This document shows positions 3,056 to 32,331 of a stretch of 32,331 nucleotides of DNA, piece after piece. The notes beneath the pieces were generated by a model, which ran no database searches, had not been told where the DNA came from, and was given only the letters and a program-made list of their open reading frames with translations. Position 1 is the first letter of the stretch. The number at the start of each line of letters is the position of its first letter. The stretch lies in the UHGV virus genome UHGV-0737708, one strand, 5' to 3'. Made by a program: the position numbers and the translations under genes. Origin of the DNA: a virus.

Positions 3056-4963
3056 ATGAAACTAATTTCTAATAAGGCCAAATTAAAAAAGATTCTCAAA
3101 AATGCAGCCAAATATATTACGCCACCGCCTAAACTACTTCCATCGGAATGGTGCGAAGCGAATATGGTGCTGGTAGATGGTCCTCAAGCTGGGGATAAAG
3201 TTAAATTGCTGTCATTCCAGAAAGGCATGATTGATGCTCCTTTCCTTGAGAATAAGAAAAAGTATGTTCTGATGACCAGTGCGCAGATCGGAAAGACTAC
3301 CATCCTGAACGGTATCCTGTTTAACCAGATGGCTAACGATCCATGCAATATGATTATCGGACAATCAACCGCTAAAGAAATGTCTCAATATCTCGCTGGT
3401 AAGATCCGACCGTCTATCGAAGCATGTGATGCATTAAAAGACGTGGTTACAGACAAGAATGATCGCAATTCTGTTAATAACAACAATCAGCTCCAGCTCA
3501 AATCAAACCACTTCCTTTATATGGTATCGCTTACTAGTCCATCAACCCTGCGCGGTAAGACTGCAAAGGTCGGACTACTAGACGAAATCGATGCTGCTAC
3601 AGCCTCAGAAGAAGGTGATCCGGTGGCACTGGCTGCTAACCGTTTAACTACCTTTGGTGATGAAGGCCGATTAGTCGTATCCAGCACCCCGACCAGTAAG
3701 CTCGGAAGCATTAACCAGCAATGGTTATCAAGCGATATGCGTATGTTTTTTGTTCCGTGTCCTCATTGCGGTAGACACCAGGTGATCGAGTGGGAAAACG
3801 TTCAATTTGAATGGCGTAACATCGATGGTAAGAACTTACCCGATCCTGATACCGCTCGTTATATTTGCCCCCACTGTAAGCAATCATGGACAGAAGGAGA
3901 GCGGATCAGGGCGGTAGCTGCTGGTGAATGGCGAGTAACGAGAGAAAGCGAGGTAGCAGGATTCTGGATCAGCCGTCTGTATTCACCTTTCAGCACGATC
4001 CGCGCTTGTGTGGTTGATTTTAGTCATGCGTGGCAATCCTTTGATTTACAATCATTTTATAACACAGTGTTAGGCAAGGTATACGACGATCAGGACACGG
4101 CAGTAGAAGCAAATGAACTGGAACAACTCAAAACAGATGTTTCTATCGAGAATATCCCTGATGACGTGATTTTCTTGTGCTCAGGAATTGACCAGCAATT
4201 GGACCGCGCAGAATCTACCATCTTAGGTGTAGCGAAAGATAAGGTTTACATTCTGGATCACCGCAGCTTTTACGATCATAACTGTGAACGATATGAATCA
4301 CCTGTATGGGATCGTCTGGTTAACTTCAAGAAAACCAAATTCTATAACGTTAATGGTGAACGTGTACCAATGCTCGCCAGCTTCCTTGATACATCGAACG
4401 GTCGATTCACTCAAGCCGGATACCGTATTTGCGGCAAGTGGAAGAACCTACACGCTATCAAAGGTAGTTCATCTGGTAATGCTCCAGTGATTCCGGTTAA
4501 ACCGACCCGCACAGGTGGTCATGAATTGCTTATGCTGGGTGTTAACGTTGGGAAATCCGCTGTTCGTGAAATGCTGGTTAGAAACCTGAAAGACAATCCT
4601 CACATCGGCTTAGAAATATCAGAAACCGTTCCTGATGATTATCTCGATCAGCTTTTGAGTGAATCCATCAAGCGTACTACTACTGGCGTGCGTTGGGTGA
4701 AAAATCCAGGTAGTACCCGAAACGAGGCTCTCGACTGTCTGGTTTATAGCTATGCTGCTTCTCGCTACGTTCTTTCAAAAATGTCATGGGATAAACTCAT
4801 TGCAATGAAAGACAGCTTAAACCGTGTTGTCGAAGAACCCGTAGAAGCTCCTAAATCGCAATCTGACGAGCAAATCGAAGAAACTAAGCCAATCACACGA
4901 CCGCAACGTAAAAACATCGCCAGACGCCCAAATAGAGGCCGTAGCTGGGTAACATCGTTCTAA
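3056..4963 (+). CDS. terL: Terminase large subunit, lambda GpA family (635 aa)
   Basis: Walker A-like SAQIGKT; paired zinc-ribbon cysteines CPHCGRH ... CPHCKQ; C-terminal [13 protein letters not shown] matching the lambda gpA nuclease region as recalled; followed by a portal gene. Confidence 0.88.
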
Positions 4964-5543: not shown

Positions 5544-7055
5544 ATGTTTAATCTTTTTCGACGCAAAAAGGCGGTAGAAACTCCAGTTAAAACTAATCAC
5601 CGCCAGCAACAACAAAAAATCTTTATCGACAAACAAGTAGAAAAATTCCAGAAAGATTTGTCTAAGCGTTCTTTGGGCTTAGTCGGTGATCGAATTGATG
5701 GTGCACTTCAACAAGATACCATCACAGGAACCTTCAACAAGGCTCTCAAATCAAACGGTAAGCGCCTTTATGATCAGGGTCGTACTCTGGCTATAAACAA
5801 TGCTGTAGGTAAGCGATACAAGCAGTATATCGTTGACCAAGTTGTTGGTACGGGGCTTGATCCGAAGCCATCAATCGTTAAATCAAATGGCAAACTTGAC
5901 ACCGCACTGAATAAGCAGATCGAGAATGCTTTCTGGAAGTGGGCGCAGAGTGCTAAACGCTTCTCTCGCAACGGTCGCTTTAACTTCCGTGAAATGCTGG
6001 CAATGGCAGAATCTGAACGTGTTCAGGGTGGAGAATGCTTCATCGTTTTAACCAAAGAAAACAATGAGTTACAAGTTTCTATTCTGTCTGCTGATAGGTG
6101 CGACTGGTCGCTTAGTCGTGAAATAAGCAAAGACCGCGCGATCTATCAAGGGATTGAGTATGACGTAGACACAATGCGCCCTGTAGCATACTGGTTTAGA
6201 AAAATCAATCTACTGACTCAGACCTACACTGGCGAAAATTATCGCGTAGATGCTTCTCAGGTGTGCCACTACTACCAGCCACTGTGCGCGGAAAGTTTAC
6301 GTGGTGTGACTGACTTCCTGCCAGTGATTAAGGATATTGCGCATCAAGAAGCGTTCCGCGAAACCGCGATCATCCAGAAACGTATTGCAGCTAGCTCTAT
6401 GGGCTTTATTGAACGTCCGAAAGATTCTGGTGACGATTTTGATACTGGTGAAGAGGATGAACAATATCAAGCGCCGGAAGTAGTACAGGACTTTGCACCG
6501 GGTACTATTCAGGAATTGCCGGAAGGGGCAACGATCAAGAGCATCCAGGCGACGCAAAGCGGTGATGATTTCAATTCCTTCAATGATGCGATGTTTACTA
6601 GCGTATCAATGGGCTTAGGCGTGTTCAAACAGGGCTTAACAGGAGATTGTTCACAGATCAACTACTCAGCCGCACGTTTTGGGGAACTAACCCAGCGTAA
6701 CCGTGTTAAAGCACTGCAAAACAAATTAATTGAAACAGTGGTATTGCCAATTTTCGAAGCATATCTACGCCATTATTCCGCGCGTGGTATTGTTCCGATT
6801 CGTATTACTGCAATTCCGCATATTATCGATAATACAACTATTATTCGTCCGCGTTTTGAATCCGTCGATCCTATTAAAGACGTAAACGCCGAGATTGCTT
6901 TAATTCAAAATGGTCTTAAATCACGTACTGCCGTTATATTAGAACGTGGTGATGATCCTGAAAAAGTATTCTCAGAGATTCAAGCCGAAAAGAGCGCACT
7001 AAATATTATCGTTAATGGCGAGGGTGAAGAAAAAAATTCCCCAGCCGATCCCTAA
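5544..7055 (+). CDS. Portal protein (503 aa)
   Basis: Size and position directly between the large terminase and the prohead protease/capsid gene; acidic segment near the C-terminus; TAAGGGGTAAA ribosome-binding site. Confidence 0.72.
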   Translation: MFNLFRRKKAVETPVKTNHRQQQQKIFIDKQVEKFQKDLSKRSLGLVGDRIDGALQQDTITGTFNKALKSNGKRLYDQGRTLAINNAVGKRYKQYIVDQVVGTGLDPKPSIVKSNGKLDTALNKQIENAFWKWAQSAKRFSRNGRFNFREMLAMAESERVQGGECFIVLTKENNELQVSILSADRCDWSLSREISKDRAIYQGIEYDVDTMRPVAYWFRKINLLTQTYTGENYRVDASQVCHYYQPLCAESLRGVTDFLPVIKDIAHQEAFRETAIIQKRIAASSMGFIERPKDSGDDFDTGEEDEQYQAPEVVQDFAPGTIQELPEGATIKSIQATQSGDDFNSFNDAMFTSVSMGLGVFKQGLTGDCSQINYSAARFGELTQRNRVKALQNKLIETVVLPIFEAYLRHYSARGIVPIRITAIPHIIDNTTIIRPRFESVDPIKDVNAEIALIQNGLKSRTAVILERGDDPEKVFSEIQAEKSALNIIVNGEGEEKNSPADP

Positions 7056-7100: not shown

Positions 7101-9104
7101 ATGCTTAAATTTCGCCGCGATCTTAACGGTTACGGTGGAGTTATTAACGAAGGGCATAACGATCAATACGAATTTGAAATTGCTTTCTCCAGTGAACAGC
7201 CTTATCAGCGCCAATTCTGGGATGAGCAAAATCAAGAAATGGTGGTATTAGATGAAATTCTGGTACATACACCGGAAGCGGTTGATCTGTCTCGTCTGAA
7301 TAATAACGCTCCGTTGCTGTTTAATCATAATTTCGATAATCACATTGGTGTCGTTTGTAACGCTCGAATCGATGCGGATAACGTAGGTCGTGCTCTGGTT
7401 AAATTCTCTAAGCATGGCACTTTGGCTAATGATATTCGCAATAAAGTCATTGAAGGTACGATGGAAAAAATTTCTGTCGGTTATGACATTAAAGAATATC
7501 ACATCGACTACACCAAAGGACAATTGATTGTTACTAAGTGGGCACCATACGAATTAAGTTTCGTTACCGTTCCTGCTGACGATACGGTCGGTTTAAATCG
7601 CTCTCTAAATACTATCACAGTTAATTTGGAGGCTAAACGCGATATGACTAAAGAACAAATCGAAGAAATCAAAGAAGAACAAGAATCCGCTCAGGTTGAA
7701 GAAACTCCGGTAGAAGAAAATAAAGAATCGGAAGTTGAAGAAACTCAAGAGCGCCAAGTTGAAGAGAATAAAGAAGATGAAAATCTCGAAGACGGAAAAG
7801 ACGCTGAACATCCTGAAAGTGTTGATGATGATAGTTCAACTGTTCGGGAAGCAGAAGAAGTAAAAGAAGAACGTGAAGCCGCTCCGGTTGAAGAAGAAAA
7901 AACCGAGGAAGTGGCTGAACGTTCCGAAGAAGACGAATTAGAAATTCGCGAAATTGCACGCGAACTAAATATTGACGACGAAGAATTAAAACGCGCATTG
8001 GCAGTTAAAGATATGACGCCGGAAGCATTCCGCACTAAGGCACTAAATAACATTACCAATGCTCAACGTAATAACGAACAAATTAATAAGGAACAAATCA
8101 TGGAAAAAACTTTCGATCTTAATAACGTAATCCGCTCCCTGGTAGATGGCGACGTGCTCGGCGCTCATGAAGCTGAATATTCCGCAATGGCTGCTACTGC
8201 AACTATGCAGCGTGGTCGTGCTGCTCGTGGTGGCTCTGTATTCGTTCCTGCTGCTGCTATGCGTGCTGCTGCTGCTGGTAACACCAAAGCTGACCTGACT
8301 GCTATCACCGACGAAAAACTGCTGACTGAATCCTACATCGAAATGCTGATGCCGGAATCCGTTCTGGGTCGTCTGGGTGTGACTGTTTACAGTGGCTTGA
8401 CTGCTCCGACCGCTATTCCAAAAATGACTAAATCCAGCGTTGACGCTTTCGGCTTCGTTGATGAAAACGGTGCTGCACCGGAAGGCAAAGCTGAATTTGC
8501 AAACGTGAAACTGTCTCCTAAGACTTTTGCTGGTGGCAACCCGATCAGCCGTCAGAGCATTAAAACCGTTCCGGGTATCGCTACCCTGATCACTGATCAC
8601 ATCAACCAGGCTGTTCGCATCAAACTGGAACAACTGATTCTGTCTGACAAAGACAATGAGCGCGGTCCTGCTGGTCTGGTTAAACAACTGGTTGATGCAA
8701 GCCGTGTTACTAAGAAAGCCGCTTTCAGCTACAAAGACTTCCTGAAAGAAATTGCAGCACTGACCGACGCTGGCGTTCCTGCTCAGGCGATCAAGTTTGC
8801 GATGAGCGGTGCAACTGCTGCTGAACTGGAATCTACCCTGAAAGATAATGGTGTTTCCGGTTATATCATCGAAAACGGCAAACTGGCTGGTTACGATGTA
8901 GTTACTTCTGGTGTTATCCCGGCAGATCACATCGTTCTGGGTGACTTCTCCGGTATTACTATCGGTGAGTGGGGCGGTCTGGAACTGGATATGGACGACA
9001 CCACCTACCGTGCACAGTCCGCTATCGTTCCGCGTATCTGGGTAGATCTGGACTATGTTGTAACCCAGCCGGAAGCTCTGAAAGTTCTTCACATCTCCGA
9101 ATGA
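7101..9104 (+). CDS. Fused prohead protease (HK97 family) - acidic scaffold-like linker - major capsid protein (HK97 fold), 667 aa
   Basis: N-terminus carries prohead protease signatures (PLLFNHNFDNHIGVV, ISVGY, ELSFVTVPADD); residues ~190-330 are Glu-rich low complexity; C-terminal ~330 aa is Ala/Gly-rich with very strong E. coli-optimal codon bias, as expected for a major capsid protein. Confidence 0.85.
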   Translation: MLKFRRDLNGYGGVINEGHNDQYEFEIAFSSEQPYQRQFWDEQNQEMVVLDEILVHTPEAVDLSRLNNNAPLLFNHNFDNHIGVVCNARIDADNVGRALVKFSKHGTLANDIRNKVIEGTMEKISVGYDIKEYHIDYTKGQLIVTKWAPYELSFVTVPADDTVGLNRSLNTITVNLEAKRDMTKEQIEEIKEEQESAQVEETPVEENKESEVEETQERQVEENKEDENLEDGKDAEHPESVDDDSSTVREAEEVKEEREAAPVEEEKTEEVAERSEEDELEIREIARELNIDDEELKRALAVKDMTPEAFRTKALNNITNAQRNNEQINKEQIMEKTFDLNNVIRSLVDGDVLGAHEAEYSAMAATATMQRGRAARGGSVFVPAAAMRAAAAGNTKADLTAITDEKLLTESYIEMLMPESVLGRLGVTVYSGLTAPTAIPKMTKSSVDAFGFVDENGAAPEGKAEFANVKLSPKTFAGGNPISRQSIKTVPGIATLITDHINQAVRIKLEQLILSDKDNERGPAGLVKQLVDASRVTKKAAFSYKDFLKEIAALTDAGVPAQAIKFAMSGATAAELESTLKDNGVSGYIIENGKLAGYDVVTSGVIPADHIVLGDFSGITIGEWGGLELDMDDTTYRAQSAIVPRIWVDLDYVVTQPEALKVLHISE

Positions 9105-9244
9105 ACTAGCGTAGAACCTTCTGTACCTTCCCCCGATTTGGGGGAAGAAAATCTGATTCCATCTCAGGAAGAAGAATCCCAGACGGTTACGGCGAAAGCC
9201 ACAGCTAAAAAGGTGGGACGTCCACCGAAAGCAAAATAATAATT

Positions 9245-9272
9245 AGCCCTGCCTAACGGTGGGGCTTTTTTG
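9245..9272 (+). terminator. Rho-independent terminator (AGCCCTGCC-TAAC-GGTGGGGCT plus T6)
   Basis: Hairpin plus TTTTTTG read directly; near-identical copy at 15108..15137. Confidence 0.7.
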
Positions 9273-9301
9273 TATGTAAATACTCCATAAAGGGGGTAAC
9301 T

Positions 9302-28480: not shown

Positions 28481-29656
28481 ATGAAACTTGCTTACGCTGC
28501 CGAAATTCCTTTTGTTAAGAAAACTCGCGGTTTATCGCCGGAAGAGTACCAACAACGAATCATCGCTAAACTGGAACCTGCTTTCGTATTTGGTGGATTT
28601 ATCCTACCGTGGAAGGGTAATCACACTTACTTTCGAATCTACAATTTAGACACACAAGAATATAAGGACTACAAATTACGCAAACTGGAAGATACTAACG
28701 GGGGTGAGTTATTCCAGACTGAAAAGGCTGTATGGTTGAAAATGGAATCTCGTTGTAATGAGAAGGGAAAGAAATTCCTCGGATGGCAAGGAGAATGGAA
28801 AGGGCGAAATAGAACGAAAGCCCGTGTTTTGTGCCCTGAACACAATCAAATCATGACGCCATCTCTATTACATGCTCTCAAAGATGATTTCGATTTTGAT
28901 TGCAAAATCTGTATGGCTGAAAAATCCCAACGGGTAAGAAGTGGCAAGACTTTTGATGAAGTTATTAAGGACAAAGAGACAATCATCAATGCACGTTGCG
29001 AGAGTACGCCTTACACCTTCAAAGGATTCATCATAAACACCCCACACCTAAAGGATGTTAAATTTAAAACTCATTGCAAGACACATAACCACGAATGGGA
29101 ATCTCATTTAAGATGTGCTGATTCTTTCACTTGTCCGCTTTGCATTAAAGACCAACTGGTGCAACTGTCTAGCCGGACTTATCAGGGTAAGGCTAGTTTC
29201 TACATTCAATTATTAGATGACAAATTTATTAAATTTGGAATCACTACCCGGAAACCAGAAGAACGAATGAGAGAGCAAACCAGAAAGAGCAACTTCACTC
29301 ACCGCTTAATCTTTACTCATGAGTTTGAGGATGGTTGGAAAGCCGTTGATTTAGAGCATGAAGTAAAACAACGCTTCAAGACTCATGCAGCACCCTACAA
29401 AGATTTCAAGGATGGATGGTCGGAAACTCTGACTATTGATGAGTTGCCACACTTACAGCAACTGGTTTATGACTACCTAACCAATCAACCGGACGAGGCT
29501 AATATGTGGGTATCCCCGAAAGATGTATTTGATGACGATACATTCAAGCTACATACTCACTTCTACGGCATCAATAAACCGGAATTTTTCTGTATTGATG
29601 ACGACAGTCCTGATTTAATGGATGAATACTTTAATGCTCTCTTAGACGCTGCCTAA
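28481..29656 (+). CDS. Zinc-ribbon plus C-terminal GIY-YIG-like (T5orf172-type) domain protein (about 391 aa from ATG at 28481; the track start 28370 is not an ATG)
   Basis: AGAGGA ribosome-binding site before ATG 28481; Cys pairs CPEHN ... CKIC and CKTHNHEW ... CPLC; FYIQLLDDKFIKFGITTRKPEERMREQ ... LEHEVKQRF matches the same domain pattern as the 189-aa protein. Confidence 0.6.
   Translation: MKLAYAAEIPFVKKTRGLSPEEYQQRIIAKLEPAFVFGGFILPWKGNHTYFRIYNLDTQEYKDYKLRKLEDTNGGELFQTEKAVWLKMESRCNEKGKKFLGWQGEWKGRNRTKARVLCPEHNQIMTPSLLHALKDDFDFDCKICMAEKSQRVRSGKTFDEVIKDKETIINARCESTPYTFKGFIINTPHLKDVKFKTHCKTHNHEWESHLRCADSFTCPLCIKDQLVQLSSRTYQGKASFYIQLLDDKFIKFGITTRKPEERMREQTRKSNFTHRLIFTHEFEDGWKAVDLEHEVKQRFKTHAAPYKDFKDGWSETLTIDELPHLQQLVYDYLTNQPDEANMWVSPKDVFDDDTFKLHTHFYGINKPEFFCIDDDSPDLMDEYFNALLDAA
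28671..28724 (+). repeat. 54-nt segment inside the 28481..29656 gene, exactly repeated at 32278..32331
   Basis: Base-by-base comparison: ACAAATTACGCAAACTGGAAGATACTAACGGGGGTGAGTTATTCCAGACTGAAA at both places. Confidence 0.9.
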
Positions 29657-32258: not shown

Positions 32259-32277
32259 TGCTCACCCCATACTAACG

Positions 32278-32331
32278 ACAAATTACGCAAACTGGAAGAT
32301 ACTAACGGGGGTGAGTTATTCCAGACTGAAA
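32278..32331 (+). repeat. Window-terminal 54-nt exact copy of 28671..28724
   Basis: Exact identity read directly; sequence upstream of 32278 is unrelated to that upstream of 28671. Confidence 0.9.

Follow-up and report, generated by a model that had tools for sequence, protein, structure and literature searches.

Putative UGA readthrough cassettes behind the major capsid and tail-tube genes of an Escherichia coli prophage family

The virus genome UHGV-0737708, a stretch of 32,331 nucleotides referred to hereafter as the window, carries behind its major capsid gene a conserved module in which an in-frame UGA is followed by an open extension of 44 sense codons, and a related module stands behind its tail-tube gene. 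Both extensions are probably translated through readthrough of the UGA, which would give minor isoforms of the capsid and tube proteins; from sequence comparison, a probability of about 0.7 is assigned to this reading. A preliminary description of the capsid locus had already proposed a translated minor isoform rather than a plain 3' untranslated region (UTR), and the proposal has gained support from the invariant TGA followed by A in every module recovered, the preservation of the reading frame and a synonymous excess restricted to that frame. It is also backed by the occurrence of the module behind a capsid allele only 38% identical, by the use of TGA where the module is present and of TAA where it is not, and by a UGA-AC context shared with phage Qβ. 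The anatomy of the modules, their peptide-level constraint and their portability between alleles and genes are described below.

The capsid open reading frame (ORF; 7101-9104, + strand) ends in the leaky-stop context GAA UGA ACU AGC (9099-9110), in which the UGA (9102-9104) is followed by A at position +4. As read directly, and as the preliminary description stated, the same frame stays open for 44 codons (9105-9236, + strand) until the first TAA (9237-9239) of a tandem TAA TAA (9237-9242; second TAA 9240-9242), which closes the extension in the usual gene-end style of this phage. The encoded peptide, TSVEPSVPSPDLGEENLIPSQEEESQTVTAKATAKKVGRPPKAK, is composed of an acidic Pro/Glu/Ser stalk (9105-9185), a VTAKATAKK core and a Lys/Arg tip. 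The 24-nt core sequence GTTACGGCGAAAGCCACAGCTAAA, which encodes VTAKATAK (9186-9209, + strand; repeat family D13), is common to the tail-tube module. RNA folding agrees with the previously described 8-bp G+C hairpin at 9127-9147, whose arms CUUCCCCC and GGGGGAAG occupy 9127-9134 and 9140-9147, 22 nt 3' of the UGA, and the terminator expected behind the UAA is present in the terminator scan as a Rho-independent terminator with a 9-bp stem (9245-9266) and a T-run (9245-9272, + strand), the GCC of which starts 6 nt after the first TAA. Neither the +1 nor the -1 frame is open, as had been noted: both close 2-4 codons past the UGA, and a frame shift at the capsid stop adds only 2-4 residues.

The second module follows the same plan, in keeping with the earlier claim of a homologous module behind the major tail gene. 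The tube ORF ends in GGA UGA ACU AAC with its UGA at 14980-14982, which is followed by an extension of 39 codons, TNEELPEPEPQPEHEAVVIPEVEEVTVKATAKRGRKAKN (14983-15099, + strand), a closing TAA (15100-15102, + strand) and a Rho-independent terminator (stem 15107-15131 plus T-run, 15107-15137, + strand) that is near-identical to that at 9245-9272; the tube copy of the core lies at 15055-15078. The best two + strand terminators between 7000 and 16500 are 9245-9266 and 15107-15131, one behind each module. Given the base composition, the chance that both extension frames stay open is about 0.005, and the conservation of the module in relatives places the open-frame pattern well beyond chance.

Relatives were collected by a capsid-protein search of viral contigs, which returned 78 loci comprising 33 close (86-97% identity) and 45 distant (33-43%) relatives, with a gap in the viral collection between at least 86% and at most 43% identity, and by core-motif scans, which yielded 54 viral and 20 metagenomic stretches. 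A total of 84 module instances, representing 66 distinct sequences, was thus available. All 33 close capsid relatives have TGA followed by A, an open frame of 28-45 codons and a TAA end. In each of the 84 modules, an in-frame TGA+A stands directly behind an ORF of 660-691 aa for the capsid or of 161-166 aa for the tube, the codon after the UGA is ACT or AAT, and TAA, TAG or a sense codon was found at the module stop position in none (0/84). The distance from the TGA to the core takes the values 33, 54, 63, 72, 78 and 81 nt, all six multiples of 3; gaps within the extension measure 3 or 6 nt, and the terminator loop and the downstream spacer show indels of 1-2 nt. Relatives in which the module is kept and the downstream frame is interrupted, the case that the preliminary description had named as damaging to its claim, did not occur among the 84 modules. 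The spacing from the final stop to the terminator is 6 nt in 62 of 64 modules. According to the core-pattern scans of viral and metagenomic contigs, the 24-nt core is confined to this phage group with at most two copies per contig, and the same DNA pattern had no match in 100,044 species-representative genomes.

The choice of stop codon is unusual within the window, where TAA closes 28 of 32 ORFs, frequently as a TAA TAA pair, and the four ending in TGA are the capsid, the tube, one TGA TAA tandem (970-975) and one TGA-T. Genes with high expression favour UAA as their stop, and in E. coli tRNA-Trp misreads UGA most readily when the next base is A (PMC5289835, citing Engelberg-Kulka 1981 for the latter). 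The safest stop would be expected for the two most abundant virion proteins, yet both use UGA-A. Codon usage falls at the UGA, from +0.35 in the mature capsid (every 44-codon window at least +0.13) to -0.30 in the extension, and this ordinary codon usage fits rare translation.

Constraint on the peptide was evaluated from single-nucleotide steps, which were counted on per-column minimum spanning trees for 36 aligned variants. In frame 0, that is, the capsid frame, 30 synonymous and 43 non-synonymous steps were observed, corresponding to 41% synonymous against 23.7% expected (binomial p = 7e-4), and the two other frames gave 25% and 24%, the neutral level; these alternative frames hold 80 and 121 stops across the aligned variants. 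The codons of the GRPP segment vary silently (GGA/GGT, CGT/CGC, CCA/CCG, CCG). In the upstream capsid and tube coding sequence, which served as the control, 66-72% of the steps were synonymous. The extension peptide is, as far as these counts can tell, constrained, though loosely, as expected of a disordered tail. The synonymous bias after the stop, which the preliminary description had suggested looking for in relatives, was accordingly found, in frame 0 only, and the conservation that it had asserted at both nucleotide and peptide level is seen in the near-invariant core and in the excess restricted to the capsid frame. As a separate observation, the invariance of the core may stem from gene conversion or from RNA-level constraint; invariance at its third codon positions was considered as an RNA-level signal and was not taken as significant, because synonymous sites in the core number only about 6 and the core pattern itself had been used to retrieve some of the sequences.

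Across the variants, the extension has a conserved layout consisting of (T/N)x(V/E)E(P/L)(S/P), an acidic Pro/Glu stretch, the dipeptide IP, more Glu, V(T/K)(A/V)KA(T/P)(A/V)K(K/R) and a basic tip of 6-10 residues. The tip occurs as GRPPKAK, ERKTKAK, QRKTKE, RGRKAKN or RSRKAKD, and GRP is absent from most; judged from these variants, the conserved property of the tip appears to be its charge and basic character, not the GRP core. The extensions are low-complexity peptides of 28-45 aa in which no Pfam or PHROG domain was found above threshold. An exhaustive HMMER search of 1.84 billion protein representatives with the 44-aa extension gave no homologue beyond an ORF call of 33 aa that lies in the same module, the sole other hit being an unrelated repeat protein. 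A query joining the capsid C-terminus, W and the extension, run in a word-indexed protein search of poor sensitivity with 12 candidates, returned four partial capsid proteins matching in the capsid part only, and none in which a sense codon replaced the stop. The preliminary description had spoken of an acidic linker ending in an AT-hook-like tail. The acidic-then-basic layout stands, and the AT-hook label is less well supported: the segment KKVGRPPKAK of the window's capsid tail resembles AT-hook (PF02178) in its G-R-P core with basic flanks, and it scores 13.2 bits against a cut-off of 17.4 (E = 0.088) in the capsid extension only, the other tail variants being without GRP. Elsewhere in the window, a minus-strand protein of 76 aa (2105-2335) starts with MTMTKATRGRPARF, which contains a true RGRP AT-hook core like the capsid-extension tail KATAKKVGRPPKAK; the terminator and flank of its gene (2057-2080) are 92% complementary to 9257-9280.

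The module can move between genes and alleles. In the 45 distant relatives (33-43% identity) the capsid gene lacks an extension of this kind and ends in TAA in 43 cases; the two that end in TGA are L046 and L077, the latter as TGA TAG. A capsid allele of only 38% identity bears the same UGA-A module, which is present at each of the four loci where the viral collection contains this allele. Every tube allele with 86-98% identity to that of the window has TGA+A and 36-41 in-frame codons, and a second tube allele in sister phages (57% identical) ends in TAA with the terminator straight after and no extension. A short capsid variant, NNEELPEEIPVVTAKATAKKVGRPPKAK, looks in the alignment like a tube-type module that has lost an internal segment without loss of frame, which indicates exchange of modules between the capsid and tube positions. 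In one metagenome contig (ERZ781272.77; L142), the tube module near 7926 ends in KRGRKTK and TAA, which are followed by an unrelated terminator, AAGCCATCCTTCGGGGTGGCTTTTTT; the extension and the terminator are thus separable. At two distant capsid loci of 42% identity (L034 and L036), the TAA stop is followed by a Lys-rich in-frame reading, starting with EKQKQKRKRKLK and running into the terminator, which is probably an A-rich spacer.

The organization described above would amount to a portable 3' cassette on the two most abundant virion genes, composed of a leaky UGA-A, 28-45 codons, TAA (TAA TAA at the capsid) and a terminator 6 nt further on. Most ribosomes would terminate at the UGA through release factor 2 (RF2), and a few per cent would accept Trp-tRNA(Trp) and run to the TAA, so low-level decoding of UGA by tRNA-Trp is the most likely mechanism. 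Readthrough of UGA in E. coli depends on how well the Trp-tRNA(Trp) ternary complex competes with RF2/RF3 (PMC10570021). The predicted readthrough junctions are VLHISE-W-TSVEPSVPSPDLGEENLIPSQEEESQTVTAK in the capsid and QEVFTAG-W-TNEELPEPEPQPEHEAVVIPEVEEVTVK in the tube, and as a result a fixed minor fraction of the capsid and tube subunits would bear a C-terminal tail, in which a disordered acidic Pro/Glu stalk would carry a short Lys/Arg tip (VTAKATAKK plus a variant tip). On their outer surface, phage particles expose capsid protein 10B in T7, as well as the C-terminal domains of gpV in lambda and of gp17.1* in SPP1. By analogy with these proteins, the tails would be displayed outside head and tail. 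At 1-5% readthrough, about 5-20 copies per T=7 head and a few per tail would be expected, and the tips may make weak polycationic contacts with polyanionic surfaces such as lipopolysaccharide (LPS), capsule or mucus. Readthrough itself, its rate, the insertion of Trp, the surface exposure and the adhesive role are what we infer from the features of the modules.

The main rival to translation is an untranslated RNA cassette, in which the module would serve to stabilise the mRNA or direct its processing, would be the source of a 3'-derived small RNA or would form a conserved junction at which modules are exchanged by recombination, and the open frame would be incidental. The near-invariance of the core (9186-9209) and the terminator between both modules, third positions included, fits such a role, as do the unremarkable codon usage of the extension and the movement of the whole module between capsid alleles that are 38% identical. 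Hairpins are also found behind the capsid UGA. The 8-bp hairpin is invariant in the long capsid variants and absent from the short capsid variant and the tube modules; the short capsid variant has instead an 11-bp hairpin with a GAAA loop, 12 nt after the UGA, which is kept through a compensatory change from T-A to C-G, and the tube modules have no consistent hairpin. Since the 8-bp hairpin is missing in the tube modules and the short capsid variant, it is not a general requirement for readthrough, and these hairpins may modulate readthrough or mRNA stability. From the core to the terminator, the consensus fold contains only the terminator, whose stem has been maintained among relatives, in one pair through compensatory change, and a 3-bp mini-hairpin; the core itself contains a GGC-GAAA-GCC mini-hairpin. 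The Rfam scan of the region gave chance-level matches only. An untranslated cassette would leave unexplained the 84 of 84 TGA+A stops in a phage that otherwise uses TAA, the six multiple-of-3 distances despite indels of 1-2 nt just downstream, the synonymous excess in frame 0 only, the TAA TAA end and the persistence of the extension when the terminator is replaced, and it is considered unlikely. A regulatory role of readthrough, in which the peptide would be a by-product, is quite improbable. According to this explanation, a ribosome that passed the UGA would stop 6 nt before the stem and, when coupled to RNA polymerase, mask its 5' arm, so that transcription would continue into the downstream head-tail and tail genes; the constant stop-terminator spacing (6 nt in the 62 of 64 modules) and the position of both modules directly before strong terminators within the late operon speak for it. 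However, such a mechanism needs neither the synonymous excess, nor the acidic-then-basic layout, nor a VTAKATAK core kept across length variants, and a stop near the terminator is the usual gene-end layout, which the TAA-ended sister tube genes have too.

The possibility that the extension is a separate small gene, a 33-aa ORF starting at the in-frame TTG at 9138-9140, is very improbable. P0005 (MGEENLIPPQEEESQTVKAKATAKKVGRPPKAK), a protein predicted by a gene caller, does exist in a public collection, but the TTG lies inside the 8-bp hairpin without a Shine-Dalgarno sequence, start codons are not conserved at this place (the short capsid variant has TTG, TTA or TCG there, the tube modules have CTT or CAA), and the codons from the UGA to the TTG are likewise conserved and in frame. 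Hardly credible are other forms of recoding, namely UGA as selenocysteine, a phage suppressor tRNA or a frameshift product, to which the G+C hairpin behind the UGA in capsid modules and a single tRNA call by ARAGORN in the window lend some colour. Against selenocysteine, no SECIS or other Rfam family matched at E <= 5, and the hairpins, which are not alike in the different capsid variants, are missing from the tube modules or inconsistent among them. The ARAGORN call, a 91-nt tRNA-Glu(ttc) at 9763-9853 (- strand) inside an opposite-strand ORF (9528-9998), is probably a false positive, and TGA serves as a true stop elsewhere, for example in the TGA TAA at 970-975. Frameshifting is opposed by the alternative frames, which stop within 2-4 codons.

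Several points weigh against readthrough and have to be set beside the evidence for it. The peptide constraint is modest (41% synonymous against 66-72% upstream), and the sequences are related and mosaic, so that the step counts are not fully independent. The near-invariant core and terminator fit an RNA-level or recombinational role too, and the hairpins behind the capsid UGA, one of them with a compensatory change, indicate some selection at the RNA level. Among the relatives collected, none has the UGA replaced by a sense codon, so that the extension is nowhere seen as plain coding sequence. Sister phages do without the tube extension, and its dispensability there suggests an accessory rather than an essential assembly role. 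No cultured relative above 42% capsid identity was found in the phage collection by DNA and protein searches, and the RefSeq annotation has nothing between the capsid stop and the next gene, nor between the tube stop and the next gene. Natural E. coli strains may terminate at UGA better than K-12, so the yield could be very low.

The window represents the late region of an E. coli prophage, which matches 60 of 5,426 complete E. coli genomes (about 90-93% identity) and is chromosomal every time; lysogens include E. coli GN4741 (NZ_CM177112.1) and PSJ-22, and the prophage family carrying the module is uncharacterised. Profile matches to Pfam and PHROG identified a lambda-type large terminase (3056-4963), a portal (5544-7055) and a tape measure protein. 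The UGA-ended capsid ORF encodes a protease-scaffold-major capsid fusion of 667 aa with Pfam Peptidase_S78 and Phage_capsid and the PHROG major head protein; its mature capsid domain runs from about the ATG at 8100 (+ strand). Codon usage within this ORF jumps near 8100, being ordinary (-0.22) in 7101-8099 and strongly biased (+0.35) thereafter, and because of this jump, a high-level internal start at ATG 8100, nested in the fusion ORF and yielding the capsid protein alone, is suggested. Small head-tail genes are present as well, and a tube-like protein of 277 aa (10008-10841), whose N-terminal domain is like that of a tail tube and whose C-terminus is weakly fibre-like, precedes a long fibre resembling T4 gp34/gp37 (10919-14452). 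The tail-tube (major tail) ORF of 157 aa (14509-14982, + strand) was assigned from the PHROG major tail protein and weak Pfam matches to lambda-like tubes. With a gp38-like adhesin (15151-15657) placed after it, this true tube gene splits the fibre module in two. Among solved structures, the capsid protein matches 8gta alone and the tube protein matches none. In addition, a 57-nt direct repeat, 98% identical, was observed at 28668-28724 and 32275-32331, the second copy being cut by the end of the window.

UGA readthrough of the capsid gene is a hallmark of the Qβ-like RNA phages, which offer the closest comparison. The stop of the Qβ coat gene, read directly, is TAT TGA ACA CTG, which shares the UGA-AC context of the capsid stop described here (GAA TGA ACT), and in both cases the in-frame extension opens with a Pro-rich, flexible linker. 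The Qβ A1 protein is a low-abundance virion component that arises from misreading by tRNA-Trp about once in 15 events, with insertion of Trp (PMC8067240). Qβ is furthermore a single-stranded RNA phage with another capsid fold and a folded extension of about 196 aa, in contrast to the 28-45 aa, disordered extensions of the prophage; there is no sequence homology between them, and in the prophage the cassette also stands behind the tail-tube gene and is immediately followed by a terminator.

Long forms of structural proteins are otherwise produced by frameshifting, as in gene 10 of T7 and T3 (10A/10B), in Lactobacillus phage A2 and in the Listeria phages A118, A500 and PSA, each of which has both its capsid and its tail gene affected (PMC5009743). 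The shared N-terminus, the two C-termini and a minority of extended subunits set by recoding would be common to these systems and the present one. In the former, slippery sites direct -1 or +1 shifts into another frame, whereas here the zero frame is open behind a stop and the other frames are closed; many frameshift-derived extensions are Ig-like domains, whereas the extension here has no domain match, although the T7 10B extension is likewise not Ig-like. Background UGA readthrough in E. coli, for example in nudL, involves the same competition of Trp-tRNA(Trp) with RF2/RF3 and also appends a C-terminal extension (PMC10570021). Such background tails are not conserved, in contrast with the UGA-A, frame and peptide of the present modules, which are conserved across alleles and two genes.

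Reports of stop-codon readthrough in structural genes of tailed phages were not found in the literature, in a search that was incomplete and in which absence is no proof. With somewhat better than even odds, the modules represent the first programmed stop-codon readthrough in a tailed double-stranded DNA (dsDNA) phage, in the form of a mobile cassette that would recombine onto unrelated structural genes at their 3' ends, namely two capsid alleles (38% identical) and one tube allele, and would decorate head and tail with a few copies of the same peptide. The locus joins two known themes: a tailed dsDNA prophage would use readthrough where others use frameshifting, and the same cassette stands on both genes. 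If translation of the extensions is true, they would correspond, in minimal and domain-free form, to the Ig-like decorations that other phages acquire through frameshifting, the recoding of structural genes in tailed phages would not be limited to frameshifting, and annotation that halts at the first UGA, as that of RefSeq does here, would miss virion components. A search for highly expressed phage genes that end in UGA-A within UAA-using genomes could reveal the same arrangement elsewhere. The cassette would also provide a compact natural E. coli system for how UGA context sets the ratio of virion isoforms, as well as a ready-made low-copy display site on head and tail. Temperature, cAMP and growth state all influence how often UGA is read through in E. 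coli (PMC10570021), so the isoform ratio could tie the composition of the phage particle to the physiology of its host.

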